16,820 nt of DNA from a virus. Positions 9,340 to 16,349 of this stretch are shown here, piece by piece (position 1 is the first letter of the stretch; the number at the start of each line of letters is the position of its first letter). The DNA lies in the UHGV virus genome UHGV-0364865; one strand, 5' to 3'. The notes beneath the pieces were generated by a model. It saw only the letters and a list, made by a program, of their open reading frames with translations, did not search any database and had not been told where the DNA came from. Position numbers and translations under genes: made by a program.

Positions 9340-9450
9340 ATGCCCTCCATAGTAACCATAACGCAATAATACGATATGTACTTTTAGAATGCAAACAAAA
9401 AATACATCTTGTGCATGGATGATTTTAGTACAGAGCGTAATAATAAGGGT
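9340..9450. promoter_or_regulatory. Divergent immunity control region (OR-type) containing PR for cro and a PRM-type promoter for cI
   Basis: PR on the minus strand: TTGCAT (plus 9389-9394), 17-nt spacer, TATTAT (plus 9366-9371), then SD and the cro ATG. Imperfect palindromes (e.g. ATGCAAAC...TTGTGCAT at 9389-9416) and recurring TTTAG motifs are operator candidates; exact operators not resolved. Confidence 0.65.
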
Positions 9451-10110
9451 ATGAAAATGAAATGGTATGAACTGGCTAGATCCAGAATGAAAGAGCTCGG
9501 CATAACTCAAGAGAAGTTAGCCGAAGAGCTTGGTATGACGCAGGGTGGAATTGGTCACTGGTTGCGCGGATCTCGTCATCCATCTCTTGACGAGATTGGT
9601 GTGGTGTTTAAATACCTTGGTATTGATAACGTCTCATTCAACCACGACGGTACATTTTCACCTGTTGGCGAATACTCATCTGCCCCCGTTAAAAAACAAT
9701 ATGAGTACCCTGTTTTTTCTCATGTTCAGGCCGGGATGTTCTCGCCTGAGCTTAGAACCTTTACCAAAGGTGATGCGGAGAGATGGGTCAGCACAACCAA
9801 AAAAGCCAGTGATTGTGCGTTTTGGCTTGAAGTTGAAGGTAATTCCATGACCGCGCCAACAGGATCCAAGCCAAGCTTTCCTGACGGGATGTTAATTCTC
9901 GTTGACCCTGAGCAGGCTGTTGAGCCAGGTGATTTCTGCATAGCCAGACTTGGTGGTGACGAGTTTACCTTCAAGAAACTGATCAGGGATAGCGGTCAGG
10001 TGTTCCTACAACCACTAAACCCGCAATATCCAATGATTCCATGCAATGATAGCTGTTCCGTAGTAGGGAAAGTTATCGCTAGCCAGTGGCCTGAAGAGAC
10101 ATTTAGTTAA
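9451..10110 (+). CDS. cI: CI-type prophage repressor (HTH plus LexA-like S24 autopeptidase domain)
   Basis: 219-aa product from the ATG at 9451 (SD AAGGG upstream); N-terminal HTH; C-terminal S24 domain with catalytic Ser in GNSMTAP and Lys in FTFKKL; divergent from cro. Confidence 0.85.
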
Positions 10111-10357: not shown

Positions 10358-10455
10358 GATCACCCAACCACATAAGCTGTGGGATGCAATGCCGAAGCAA
10401 CCGTCTCAGGAGGGGCTTCGAGATTGCATCGCCAAAGTTTATTCGGGAGGAATCT

Positions 10456-10728
10456 ATGTCCAGAAAAACAGAATTTAAAGGAACCGCAGCTTCTCGCCGT
10501 AGAGCTCGTCGTGCAAATCTGCAAAGTCAGGAGGCGATCAGCTCCGACAAGCTACACAGGCCAACCCCTTCACGAGTGGTCTTGCAATGCAAGCGCAAAC
10601 CAGCAATGAGAGCAGAAGTGATAACTCTGACAACGTTGACCAGAAAATATGAAGGTTCAACTTGTCTTCCAAACGTAGCTCTTTACGCGGCAGGCTACCG
10701 GAAATCCAAACAACTGACAGCAAGATGA
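10456..10728 (+). CDS. N: N-type transcription antiterminator
   Basis: 90-aa product from the internal ATG at 10456 (SD GGGAGG upstream); N-terminal arginine-rich motif (GTAASRRRARRANLQ); C-terminus ...VALYAAGYRKSKQLTAR resembles the P22 gp24 C-terminus as recalled. Confidence 0.75.
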   Translation: MSRKTEFKGTAASRRRARRANLQSQEAISSDKLHRPTPSRVVLQCKRKPAMRAEVITLTTLTRKYEGSTCLPNVALYAAGYRKSKQLTAR

Positions 10729-10786: not shown

Positions 10787-11038
10787 ATGGAATTTCATGA
10801 AAGTGCGATTTATGATTTTCGCGCTAACGCAAATTCAGTAAAACCACAGCCAATTGCAGTTCTTTTTAAAACAATGGGTGCGTGGGCTGTTTTATGCTTC
10901 GCCGCTGATGACACTGATGCAAGAATGGCAATAGGCCAAGAGATGGAGATGGACCCGACAAACGATGAATTCATAATTTATGGCGCTCCATCTAATTACT
11001 TACTTGATACCTGCAACATTTACAACAAGGCTGCCTGA
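10787..11038 (+). CDS. Hypothetical small acidic protein
   Basis: 83-aa ORF with SD GAGGTG upstream; no recognisable motif. Confidence 0.5.
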   Translation: MEFHESAIYDFRANANSVKPQPIAVLFKTMGAWAVLCFAADDTDARMAIGQEMEMDPTNDEFIIYGAPSNYLLDTCNIYNKAA

Positions 11039-11077
11039 TGGTGGCCTTTATTTTTGGCATAAACAACAGAGGCTAAC

Positions 11078-11374
11078 ATGGAATTTAAAGGTACTGAAGG
11101 TAAGTGGGAAATAATGATGGATGGCGATGAGATTAAAATCATCCAGGCAGACTCACTTGAAAATGGCGCAGGCTGGCGTTCGTATATTGCAATCTGTGAG
11201 GAAGTTCAATGCATTGAAGATGCCAATCTAATAGCGGCAGCACCTGACCTTCTCGAAGCACTTCAGTTATTACTTAAGCAAACCAAAAATAGAACAACGA
11301 CAACATATCCAGAATGGTATGGAGCTGTTAATAAAGGTCTTGCAGCAATCAGAAAAGCTCTTGGGGAAGAATGA
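11078..11374 (+). CDS. Hypothetical protein with an ead/Ea22-type N-terminal-like domain
   Basis: 98-aa ORF with SD AGAGG; shares a motif pattern (G.W ... I.. ... AN.IAAAP.LLEAL) with the N-terminus of the 272-aa protein at 15531-16349. Confidence 0.55.
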   Translation: MEFKGTEGKWEIMMDGDEIKIIQADSLENGAGWRSYIAICEEVQCIEDANLIAAAPDLLEALQLLLKQTKNRTTTTYPEWYGAVNKGLAAIRKALGEE

Positions 11375-11532
11375 TGAATAAGAAATACATTGTTGAAGTT
11401 ATAGAGCGAGAAACGAAAGAAGTAATCAAACATTTCGAATTTGATAATTATAGAAAAGCTGACCGCGTAGAAGAAGGATTGTTGCGACAAAGTAATCTCG
11501 AAAAATTTGATGTTGTCATGCGATGCGAATAA
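11371..11532 (+). CDS. Hypothetical small protein (53 aa), translationally coupled to the upstream gene
   Basis: Not in the supplied ORF track (below its length cut-off); read manually: ATG at 11371 overlapping the upstream stop (ATGA), in frame to TAA at 11530-11532; product MMNKKYIVEVIERETKEVIKHFEFDNYRKADRVEEGLLRQSNLEKFDVVMRCE. Confidence 0.4.
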   Translation: MMNKKYIVEVIERETKEVIKHFEFDNYRKADRVEEGLLRQSNLEKFDVVMRCE

Positions 11533-11625
11533 GCGCCTATAGCAGATTTACGAGTCTGCTATGTGAGCAATGTCGCTCGTAACTAAACAGGAGCCGACTT
11601 GTTCTGATTATTGGAAATCTTCTTT

Positions 11626-11651
11626 GCCCTCCAATGTGAGGGCGATTTTTT
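11626..11651 (+). terminator. tL1-like intrinsic terminator
   Basis: Stem GCCCTC (11626-11631) / GAGGGC (11638-11643) with a 6-nt loop, followed by GATTTTTT. Confidence 0.7.
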
Positions 11652-11671
11652 ATCTGTGAGGATATGAACAG

Positions 11672-12040
11672 ATGTCAAACATCAAAAAATACATCATTGA
11701 TTACGACTGGAAAGCATCAATAGAAATTGAAATCGACCATGACGTAATGACAGAGGAAAAACTTCACCAGATTAATAATTTCTGGTCAGACTCTGAATAC
11801 CGACTCAATAAACACGGCGCTGTATTAAATGCTGTATTAATCATGCTGGCGCAACATGCTCTGCTTATAGCAATTTCGAAAGACTTAAATGCATATGGTG
11901 TTGTTTGTGAGTTCGACTGGGATGATGGAAATGGTCAGGAAGGATGGCCTCCAATGGATGGTAGCGAAGGAATAAGAATTACCGATATCGACACATCAGG
12001 AATATTTGATTCAGATGATATGACTATCAAAGCCGCCTGA
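11672..12040 (+). CDS. Hypothetical acidic protein
   Basis: 122-aa ORF with SD GAGGA upstream; first gene after the tL1-like terminator; no confident family assignment. Confidence 0.55.
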   Translation: MSNIKKYIIDYDWKASIEIEIDHDVMTEEKLHQINNFWSDSEYRLNKHGAVLNAVLIMLAQHALLIAISKDLNAYGVVCEFDWDDGNGQEGWPPMDGSEGIRITDIDTSGIFDSDDMTIKAA

Positions 12041-12074: not shown

Positions 12075-13043
12075 ATGAGTGAAGTAACAGATTTAGTTGT
12101 TATTGAAAAAGCAAATGCAATGACTGTATTTCAGTCTTCCGACCAGATTGAAGAAATCCTTCAAAAGGTTGAACGTGAAGTTATGTCCTTTGTGCCTGAT
12201 ATCACAACGGCAAAGGGCAGAAAGGAGATCGCTTCTCTGGCGTATAAAGTTGCGCAGACGAAAACATATCTCGATGGTCTTGGCAAAGACCTTGTTGCTG
12301 AACTGAAGGAAATTCCAAAGCTAATTGATGCCAACCGCAAGACAGTGCGTGATCGCCTTGATGAGCTGAAAGCCAAGGCACGCCAGCCTCTTACTGATTA
12401 TGAGGAAGAACAGGCGCGGATTAAAGCCGAAGAAGAAGCTAAGGCAGCAGCTGAAGCTCTCGCAAAGCAAATTGAGTCTGACCATGAAATAGCGATTTTG
12501 ATGGATCGCGAATTTGACCGCCAAAGAGAAGAGGCAAGACTCAAAGCGGAGCAGGAAAAGCGAGAGCATGAAGAACGATTAAAAAGAGAAGCTGAAGAGA
12601 AAGCCAGAGCAGAAGCCGAAGCAAAGGCAAAAGCCGAAATTGAAGCAGCAGCAAGGCGAGAAGCAGAAGCTAAGGCCGCAGCAGAACGTGCAGAGCGTGA
12701 ACGCATTGAAGCCGAGCAACGAGCACAGCGCGAAGCAAAAGAGGCAGCAGAACGAGCTGAAAGAGAAAAGCAGGCAGCAATTGAAGCAGAACGCAGAAAA
12801 GCACAGGAGGAGGCTGAACAAATCCGTCGCGATGCTGAAGCAAAAGAGCAAGCCAGAATAGCAGAAGAAAAAAGAATCAAGGACGAAGAAGAGCGTAGAG
12901 CAAAGGATAAAGATCACCGGAAAGAAGTAAATAACAAAATACTTGCTGACCTTATCAAGGTTGGCGCATCAGAAGATGTTGCTAAAAATATCATAACAGC
13001 CATCGTAAAAGGCGAAGTATTCGCAACAAAAATAACCTACTAA
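12075..13043 (+). CDS. Hypothetical protein with a long, highly charged E/K/R/A-rich central helical region
   Basis: 322-aa ORF with strong SD AAGGAGG; about 120-aa N-terminal region, about 150-aa central segment made almost entirely of E, A, K, R, Q (predicted single alpha-helix or coiled coil), and about 45-aa C-terminal region; antisense ORFs across it are low-complexity artefacts. Confidence 0.65.
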   Translation: MSEVTDLVVIEKANAMTVFQSSDQIEEILQKVEREVMSFVPDITTAKGRKEIASLAYKVAQTKTYLDGLGKDLVAELKEIPKLIDANRKTVRDRLDELKAKARQPLTDYEEEQARIKAEEEAKAAAEALAKQIESDHEIAILMDREFDRQREEARLKAEQEKREHEERLKREAEEKARAEAEAKAKAEIEAAARREAEAKAAAERAERERIEAEQRAQREAKEAAERAEREKQAAIEAERRKAQEEAEQIRRDAEAKEQARIAEEKRIKDEEERRAKDKDHRKEVNNKILADLIKVGASEDVAKNIITAIVKGEVFATKITY

Positions 13044-15293: not shown

Positions 15294-15544
15294 GTAATTC
15301 AGCACGACTACAGCTTGGTTTTTCACCGCTATCAAAAACTATCATGCTGGCAAAAATGCGCGATGTTGAAGGTGGACGTATGCGCGTTGGCAATGATCCA
15401 GGTCGTGATGTTACCAATGAGGCTGCTCAATTGGTGTGGCGACTGGTCATGGCTGAAGGTGGTGAGATCGCGTGGGAGCTGGATGATGGTTCTCGCATGG
15501 TGTTGAAGGCAGAAAAGCAGGAGGCAACCAGTGAGCAAGATTGA
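15290..15544 (+). CDS. Hypothetical protein (84 aa, GTG start)
   Basis: GTG at 15290 preceded by AAGGAGG with a 6-nt spacer and overlapping the upstream stop (GTGA). Confidence 0.45.
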
Positions 15545-16349
15545 CTATCAGGCACTGCGTGCCAAGGCAGAAAAAGCAACGTGTGGTGTATGGTCGCTCG
15601 AATATGGAGAGAGCCGATTTGATTGTGATGATGCGCTAATTCATCGTGACGTTGTTGGATATCTTCCCATTTGCAGAATTGAAGGAGCGCATCCTGAAAG
15701 CGGTTTCGATGAAGATTTCCAAATGGAACAGCAGGCCAATGCTGAATTCATCGCCGCAGCTAATCCGGCTACCGTCTTGGCATTACTGGATGAACGGGAA
15801 AGAAACCAGCAATACATCAAACGCCGCGACCAGGAGAACGAGGATATTGCGCTAACGGTAGGGAAGCTGCGCGTTGAGCTGGAAGGCAAAGACAGCAAAA
15901 TAGCCAATCTTACCGCCGAACGCGATGCTCTTCGTGAAGGTGAGATGGGCGACGCTAGGCATAGCAACACACGGGCCGCAGCTGATATCTACTTCCAACT
16001 GGTCGAGGAGTGCGAAATTCCTGCTGGCGGTTCTCTGGTCGAGTACGTTGACGATATGCGAGAGAAGCTGGAAGCCTCAGAGAAGCGCATTGCAGAACTG
16101 AAAAGCAACGAAGTCCGTGAAGTCGGAAATCAGTTTCTTGTTGTTCGCCATCCTGGGAAAACTCCTGTCATCAAGCACTGCACTGGTGACCTGGAAGAGT
16201 TTCTGCGGAAGTTAATCGAACAAGACCCGTTAGTAACTATCGACATCATTACGCATCGCTATTACGGGATTGGCGGTCAATGGGTTCAGGATGCAGTTGA
16301 GTATCTGCATATGATGTCTGACGCTGGCATTCGCATCAAAGGAGAGTGA
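15531..16349 (+). CDS. ead/Ea22-like protein
   Basis: 272-aa ORF with a GTG start preceded by the same AGGAGGCAACCA cassette; N-terminal domain (ALRAKAEKATCGVW...AEFIAAANPATVLALL) of the ead/Ea22 type, followed by a coiled-coil-like middle region; family assignment from memory. Confidence 0.5.
   Translation: MSKIDYQALRAKAEKATCGVWSLEYGESRFDCDDALIHRDVVGYLPICRIEGAHPESGFDEDFQMEQQANAEFIAAANPATVLALLDERERNQQYIKRRDQENEDIALTVGKLRVELEGKDSKIANLTAERDALREGEMGDARHSNTRAAADIYFQLVEECEIPAGGSLVEYVDDMREKLEASEKRIAELKSNEVREVGNQFLVVRHPGKTPVIKHCTGDLEEFLRKLIEQDPLVTIDIITHRYYGIGGQWVQDAVEYLHMMSDAGIRIKGE

Follow-up and report, generated by a model that had tools for sequence, protein, structure and literature searches.

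The viral genome UHGV-0364865 contains, within the 16,820-nucleotide (nt) stretch analyzed here (the window), two genes whose products very probably share a homologous domain. One encodes a 98-amino-acid (aa) protein that stands alone (11078-11374). The other encodes a 272-aa Ea22-like protein (15531-16349) in which the related domain forms a head, followed by a coiled coil and a C-terminal domain. Both open reading frames (ORFs) lie on the plus strand, at the positions that a first-pass annotation had given. That annotation also proposed that the same domain occurs once free and once fused to a coiled coil and C-terminal region, and profile-profile alignment, a deep hidden Markov model (HMM) and a bridging protein all bear the proposal out. 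We hold the homology of the short protein with the Ea22 head, together with the modular architecture, with high confidence. Taken as a whole, our account is likely to be the best explanation, a grade that mainly reflects those two parts of it.

The 98-aa protein is an ordinary full-length member of PF27050 (Phage_P22_Y8K6; phrog_1273) and apparently resembles P22 orf78. It matches phrog_1273 over its full length (E=1.8e-32), and a precomputed PF27050.1 tag is attached to the exact protein and to all of its close homologues. The PF27050 model is newer than our local Pfam copy; membership was taken from this tag and from the equivalent phrog_1273 match. The protein, which reads MEFKGTEGKWEIMMDGDEIKIIQADSLENGAGWRSYIAICEEVQCIEDANLIAAAPDLLEALQ..., is a single domain within the ~90-110 aa size range of the family and carries all three of its hallmarks: the N-terminal KGTPGPW motif, a central (D/N)A.LIAAAP(E/D)LLEAL and a C-terminal AI.KALGE. 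Set against the family, it shows no essential difference, having one beta-core type (GSLENGAGWRSYIAIC) and one tip type of many. The ORF of phage ST104 named orf18 occupies the same site, between ral or N and cIII, and its record describes it as similar to P22 orf78. The name "Y8K6" presumably reflects the 8.6 kDa mass of a 78-aa protein.

Several parts can be delimited along the short gene, all on the plus strand, using the consensus and invariant columns from alignments of 61 and 138 family sequences. A Shine-Dalgarno-like AGAGG, read from the sequence, lies at 11068-11072, 5 nt 5' of the ATG. The N-terminal motif MEFKGTEGKW (11078-11107; family consensus M.EFKGTPGPW) forms the left boundary of the beta-core cassette; in the family, G8 and W10 are invariant and F3, K4, G5 and T6 nearly so. 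The swappable beta-core itself spans codons 7-50 (11095-11227). It leads into the central joint helix EDANLIAAAPDLLEALQ (11216-11266), which is the most conserved element of the short family, with L51, I52, A55, P56, L58, L59 and L62 invariant, and is also a point of mosaic exchange. A hypervariable tip between the helices (codons 64-88; 11267-11341) consists of columns without consensus and contains many insertions and deletions. The gene closes with the C-terminal helix end AAIRKALGEE (11342-11371), in which I91, K93, A94 and L95 are conserved and which the Ea22 form lacks.

By its sequence, the 272-aa protein is a genuine lambda-type Ea22. It matches the Pfam model Ead_Ea22 (PF13935) over residues 2-144 with 101.3 bits (E=8e-29; cutoff 27). 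Ea22 proteins have been described as having a central coiled coil, a variable C-terminal domain and a terminal K/RGE motif (PMC7093339, PMC10834534); Ea22 is tetrameric and favours lysogeny (PMC10834534, PMC7093339). On the plus strand, the gene starts with a leader (codons 1-17; 15531-15581) that has 78% DNA identity with lambda ea22 over 15530-15579. The head cassette follows (codons 18-82; 15582-15777) and has no DNA similarity to lambda ea22 or to the loci L002, L003 and L005. Next comes the coiled-coil stalk (codons 83-191, LALLDERERNQQYIKRRDQENEDIALTVGKLRVELE...; 15778-16103), so named after published descriptions of Ea22 (PMC10834534, PMC7093339), whose DNA is shared with lambda (89% identity over codons 83-124) and with L005 (96% over codons 83-192). 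The last part is a lambda-type C-terminal domain (16104-16346): the 81 residues from 192 to 272 match the lambda Ea22 C-terminal domain structure (PDB 8dsx; E=7e-48), codons 185-272 are 95% identical in DNA to lambda ea22, and the protein ends IRIKGE, in keeping with the K/RGE motif (PMC7093339).

The Ea22-like gene is a four-part mosaic. Its leader, coiled-coil start and C-terminal domain are common to lambda. Codons 125-184, in the middle of the coiled coil, recur in an Escherichia prophage (L005) and not in lambda, and the head is found in neither. The Pfam Ead_Ea22 model does have positions covering the head, and the head cassette alone scores 25.3 bits against model positions 14-73, slightly under the cutoff.

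The first-pass annotation had drawn attention to a series of motifs shared by the two proteins, and these are indeed present in the same order. The 272-aa protein carries K.T.G.W, Y.(A/P)IC and AN..IAAA.P within ...AEKATCGVWSLEYGESRFDCDDALIHRDVVGYLPICRIEGAHPESGFDEDFQMEQQANAEFIAAANPATVLALLDE..., as the 98-aa protein does, except that it has IAAANPATVLALL and not IAAAP.LLEAL. The shared domain, originally assigned to the first ~85 residues, is real at the protein level and occupies residues 12-92 (nt 15564-15806). To score the relationship we used a deep HMM made from 134 diverse short-family representatives, from which Ea22-like and bridging sequences had been left out. It scores the N-terminus of the 272-aa protein at 10.0 bits (E=3.6e-5), above all of ~4,900 scored shuffles. 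As controls, three Ea22 N-termini that have no head block (lambda, L002 and L005) score between -0.6 and 0.7 bits.

Profile-profile alignment gives the same answer. With the deep profile, hhalign returns E=7e-5 over 63 columns; with a fuller PF27050 alignment it returns E=6e-6 at a probability of 85% over 64 columns, placing short residues 1-69 against long residues 12-92. This alignment pairs KGTEGKW with KATCGVW, YIAIC with YLPIC, and EDANLIAAAP with QQANAEFIAAANP, and it places a 14-residue insertion before the helix in the 272-aa head. In a six-frame scan of 345 window segments, the Ea22-like ORF is the only significant match besides the short ORF itself (E=0.003; next 0.76). Some short-family members match phrog_1667, phrog_8171 and phrog_1138, and the 272-aa N-terminus matches the same three. 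In the Ea22 of phage 933W (L053:658-1431), the head is of a second type that combines another beta-core with the same ANAEFIAEANPATVLALL helix; the whole of this head is matched by the short-family profile with 11.0 bits (E=1.8e-5). P22 Ead (L054:793-1386) is headless, and the same profile gives no match to it.

A protein that bridges the two families emerged from a tblastn search of sequenced phages with the 272-aa head. The search found 59 records at 86-99% identity (among them HK620 hkaG, Sf6 gene 21 and ST104 orf8) and one divergent match, gp80 of Yersinia phage vB_YenS_P400; the top 120 protein-database matches to the head were likewise all more than 90% identical. This gp80 is free-standing, ~105-110 aa long, annotated as an "ead/Ea22-like family protein" and tagged PF27050. 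It has the short-family hallmarks KGTPGAW, ANAKLIAAAPELLEAL and a C-terminal INKALGEE, while its beta-core and the loop GAHPESGFD.EFQMEQ.ANA are of the Ea22-head type, unlike those of the 98-aa protein. In BLASTP, gp80 is 43% identical to residues 12-98 of the 272-aa protein (58 bits, E=5e-16). It matches the short-family HMM with 74.5 bits (E=3.5e-25) and the 98-aa protein over its full length (E=2e-6). Searching 5.8 billion proteins with the single gp80 sequence retrieves PF27050 and PF13935 proteins alike, at a database-wide E of ~2-6e-6.

The predicted fold of the short protein is compatible with this relationship. We built an AlphaFold2 (AF2) model of the 98-aa protein on the 61-sequence alignment, with a mean predicted local distance difference test (pLDDT) score of 72. 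In the model, a beta-sheet of three strands is followed by a long central helix (ANLIAAAPDLLEAL), onto which a second, C-terminal helix folds back. The helices (residues 43-70 and 77-94) are confident, with pLDDT of 80-92 overall, 86-89 in the central joint helix and 86-92 in helix 77-94; the strands (10-15, 18-23 and 35-41) are weak. The model is a helical hairpin and not an extended coiled coil, and the chain ends at residue 98 with ...KALGEE. No solved structure similar to it was found, and its BFVD matches are uncharacterised phage proteins. The N-terminus of Stx-type Ea22 has been described as an autonomously folded unit of three beta-strands and a helix that is truncated in lambda (PMC7093339), and the beta-beta-beta-alpha layout predicted for the 98-aa protein matches that description. 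This apparent agreement in secondary-structure layout between the short protein and the Ea22 head is drawn from the published secondary-structure description and on the 98-aa model.

The modularity suggested by the first-pass annotation is visible directly as cassette boundaries in the DNA of both genes, where the beta-core is exchanged as one block between conserved motifs. Lambda Ea22 reads ...ALREAAEQA-MHDDWGFDADLFHELVTPSIV-LELLDERERNQQ..., without a head, and other Ea22 proteins have unrelated inserts where the head sits. Among phages, ~357 records carry the Ea22 coiled-coil start, of which ~60 have this head type. The short gene shows the same pattern in comparison with the P0072 locus, which is 84% identical in DNA to the window over 11043-11094 and 98.6% identical from nt 11228 on, a position inside the central helix motif; codons 7-50 have no detectable similarity. 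Because this comparison keeps the flanks and not codons 7-50, the conserved N-terminal motif and the central helix bound the swappable core. The breakpoints accordingly lie at nt 11094 and 11228 in the short gene and at codons 17 and 83 in the Ea22 gene. Discordant inheritance extends to the tip: among 262 family members, a sample weighted toward close relatives of the 98-aa protein, 1,287 pairs combine N-cores of at least 70% identity with tips of no more than 30%, and in another 593 pairs the tip is the similar part and the N-core the divergent one.

The first-pass annotation had spoken of domain paralogy inside one operon. The homology holds, but duplication within the operon does not fit: the 98-aa protein and the Ea22 head are only ~25% identical, their DNA is not similar and the two genes do not always occur together. 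A recent intragenomic duplication or DNA repeat was rejected on the finding that exact matches between the stretches coding for the motif do not exceed ~5 nt. Because the motif DNA shares so little, the relationship is old and at the protein level. Since the beta-core is an exchangeable cassette in both genes, we conclude that the two copies are old homologues united by lambdoid mosaic recombination.

The short form, which the first-pass annotation had suggested surveying, is widespread. A profile search (E<=0.001) found 3,059 short-family representatives at the 50%-identity level, nearly all of 85-125 aa. The exact 98-aa protein is listed in 894 index blocks and present in hundreds of public assemblies, and its gene lies between N or ral and cIII in every case examined, all of them lambdoid or P22-like prophages. 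Short gene and Ea22 occur together in loci L042, L043, L044 and L051 and in ST104, with Ead_Ea22 downstream of the short gene in L042-L044. In L041 and L045, which have an identical short gene, Ead_Ea22 was not seen within the 6 kb of downstream sequence that each locus spans. More distant relatives turn up in prophages of Paludibacter and Biostraticola, next to early genes for replication and recombination, and also in ~145 kb lytic Vequintavirinae. Because of this distribution and context, the free-standing short form is the dominant architecture and the Ea22 fusion a narrow enterobacterial variant. Calling the short protein an "ead/Ea22-type" domain thus captured a true relationship in the wrong direction: PF27050, with its 3,059 representatives, is the parent family, from which the head of Ea22 proteins is set apart as a cassette that may be present or absent.

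Architectures other than the plain short form were also encountered. Four members of 150-190 aa (P0266, P0286, P0337 and P0341) have two tandem helical modules (ANA.LIAAAPDLLEAL ... AAIAKA.G). The PF04447 tag on P0189 is a short C-terminal mosaic piece. An apparent Klebsiella-phage fusion to a nucleotide pyrophosphohydrolase (L048:2333-3004, OY979426) was discarded, as the annotated coding sequence has several stops; the matching region in fact encodes a free-standing PF27050 protein of 85 aa, and the annotation coordinates of that record are unreliable.

A number of observations weigh against the homology, and some of them speak for the alternative that a short alanine-rich amphipathic helix (AN..IAAA) and a G.W turn arose independently in unrelated proteins. 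BLASTP of the 98-aa against the 272-aa protein gives only a local match in an unrelated region (E=1.1). Pfam Ead_Ea22 has no match to the 98-aa protein at E<=1 and none among 138 short-family members at E<=0.1; it also misses gp80 and ST104 orf18. Shallow profiles, made from close relatives only, reach no more than ~0-1 bit, which is not significant, although even these weak alignments fall on the motifs first noticed. Direct profile comparison gives a moderate signal (probability 63-85%) that is strongest over the AN..IAAA helix, the motif from which most of the HMM score comes; the AF2 beta-sheet is of low confidence (pLDDT 52-67). The bridge is also open to question: the AHPESGFD..FQMEQ.ANA stretch of gp80 is far closer to the Ea22 head than the rest of gp80 is, and if gp80 is itself a recombinant, the argument by transitivity loses force. 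Because such a recombinant is conceivable in so mosaic a family, we gave the direct profile evidence equal weight with the bridge. That evidence is collinear over 64 columns and specific, in that headless Ea22 N-termini score ~0 bits; the alignment rises significantly above background where BLASTP does not. In addition, gp80, a full-length member of the short family, has 43% of 88 aligned residues in common with the Ea22 head, and the predicted beta-beta-beta-alpha layout agrees with that of the Stx-type head (PMC7093339). Chance or convergence is therefore very unlikely. A different objection accepts the motifs and holds that they are kept chiefly as linkers for DNA recombination, the protein similarity being a by-product with no shared function. 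The breakpoints do coincide with conserved motifs in both genes, and N-cores and C-tips do assort independently. Yet the motif is conserved as protein and not as DNA, the two stretches that code for it in the window having exact runs of at most ~5 nt in common; it persists across the 3,059 clusters at 50% identity, distant hosts included; and W10, L51, I52, A55, P56, L58, L59 and L62 look like a hydrophobic core. We consider the linker explanation improbable.

It might also be asked whether homology accounts for both genes being in one operon through a direct interaction, the short protein using its shared head and helix to co-assemble with the Ea22 oligomer and tune its pro-lysogenic activity. 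Both genes do lie in one early-left block, several prophages carry both (the five cases named above), and the Ea22 tetramer possibly assembles via its N-terminal region (PMC10834534). Against such regulation, L041 and L045 have the identical short gene without Ead_Ea22 in the 6 kb downstream, and phage mEp043 has the short gene without a head of the 272-aa type (B-type). The family further occurs in lytic Vequintavirinae, Bacteroidota and other prophages with no Ea22 seen nearby, and the heads have different beta-cores at their ~25% identity. Regulation of Ea22 by the short protein is accordingly highly unlikely.

Returning to the reading of old homologues shuffled by recombination, we can sketch how the two forms might work. 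Because both genes lie on the N strand in the early-left block, they would probably be expressed early from pL under N antitermination. Eleven positions (G8, W10, L51, I52, A55, P56, L58, L59, L62, K93 and A94) are invariant in the short family and look like a structural core, while beta-core and tip vary freely. The conserved helices would then serve as a scaffold, and the variable beta-core and tip as a protein-binding surface whose target would be a factor of the host or of its defences. On its own, the short protein would act as a single binder. In the Ea22 head, the central helix would run straight into the coiled coil instead of being capped by a C-terminal helix, giving several heads on an oligomeric stalk that also bears a swappable C-terminal effector.

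A binding or anti-defence role, drawn from location and variability, is a tentative suggestion. The neighbourhood, with ral, sieB, gene 17 and Abc2, fits a host or defence reading, and the recombination-associated region has been described as an anti-immunity hotspot where fusions of EaD/Ea22 with Oad2, an anti-OLD protein, can occur (bioRxiv 10.64898/2026.07.10.737580). Counting against this role, the short family has no PADLOC or NCBIfam matches, the best hit of a PDB profile search is at chance level (E=0.75), and a conserved functional partner is also absent; PHROG lists the function as unknown, and the literature gave nothing relevant. More speculatively, PF27050 proteins and Ea22 heads may make up one combinatorial system in which a helical joint lets heads shuffle against tips or against a coiled coil and effector, a proposal we think rather doubtful. 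If it were true, these proteins would be rapidly diversifying counter-defence or host-takeover binders, each head or tip type with its own target; binding would be monovalent in the short form and multivalent in the Ea22 form, which would also bear the effector.

Comparison with known systems sharpens these distinctions. Within Ead/Ea22 (lambda Ea22, Stx-phage variants, HK620 HkaG and Sf6 gp21), the 272-aa protein belongs by its leader, coiled coil, 8dsx-type C-terminus and KGE end. The 98-aa protein is not a member: its predicted layout matches the beta-beta-beta-alpha head (PMC7093339), but it has no PF13935 match, coiled coil or K/RGE end, and its capping helix at the C-terminus is missing from Ea22. 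Lambda Ea22, like P22 Ead, is headless. The Oad2/EaE fusion on an Ead/Ea22 scaffold (bioRxiv 10.64898/2026.07.10.737580) follows the same modular principle and lies in the same part of the genome: the scaffold is conserved and the domains on it can be swapped. There, the C-terminal cargo has a demonstrated target, OLD, whereas the head domain and the short family have no known target.

Both proteins belong to catalogued, shuffle-prone phage families and are not a new kind of element. What is added is modest: a link between the separately annotated PF27050 and PF13935, such that the optional Ea22 head is a divergent PF27050 domain, and a map at the DNA level of the beta-core boundaries in both genes. 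The head of Ea22, a pro-lysogenic protein of Shiga-toxin phages, can be treated as a separable and widespread domain, for which the short family is usable in structural work and partner screens. Its conserved scaffold and shuffled variable parts also make the short family a reasonable candidate for anti-defence screens of early-left genes.

The window as a whole is a lambdoid or P22-like prophage. Its minus strand carries lysis genes, Q, a DnaB-type helicase, an O-like initiator, cII and cro; cI is on the plus strand at 9409-10110. N follows on the same strand (10384-10728; Pfam N_peptide, E=2e-32). As called mechanically, the N ORF has 114 aa, but residue 23 is the first that its Pfam match covers, and translation probably begins at Met25 (nt 10456; MSRKTEFKGTAASRRRARR...). 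After N, the early-left order is an 83-aa ORF, the 98-aa ORF, a 53-aa ORF, DUF2528, a 322-aa charged protein, cIII, kil, a Rad52-type recombinase, a single-stranded DNA-binding protein (SSB), Abc2 and the 272-aa Ead/Ea22 protein. The 98-aa gene had been described as next to N; it is near N, with the 83-aa ORF and a terminator-like hairpin between them. Locus L043 has the identical gene order, with Pfam labels, and phages APC_JM3.2 and mEp043 hold DNA closely related to the window.

The 53-aa ORF (phrog_6949; 11371-11532, plus strand) begins with an ATG that overlaps the stop of the 98-aa gene (ATGA), an arrangement that would couple the two. An ORF of 52 or 53 aa comes after the PF27050 gene in L042, L043, L044, L050, L051 and L052, whereas L041 and L045 lack one there, and it is thus a frequent, non-obligatory companion. 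A consensus scan located two terminator-like hairpins with T-runs on the plus strand, one just upstream of the 98-aa gene (11027-11056) and one 3' of the 53-aa ORF (11624-11655). They bracket the 98-aa gene and the 53-aa ORF, which could on this basis form an N-antitermination-dependent unit. The DUF2528 protein (11672-12040) sits between the short gene and cIII and is present in some relatives only. The same holds for the 322-aa protein (12075-13043; phrog_1376), which is rich in E/A/K/R repeats and is called "TolA-like" in the annotation of relatives.

In a search of one genome per species, the Ea22 query found matches in assemblies of many unrelated taxa, dozens in all (among them Streptomyces, Bacillus, Prevotella and Pseudomonas; L004-L038), and most hits were apparently phage lambda itself. 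The contigs are small or ~48.5 kb, and their matches are alike, at 50% identity over residues 51-100. Two that were translated (L019 and L022) encode lambda Ea22, and these matches are most likely lambda spike-in or contamination.

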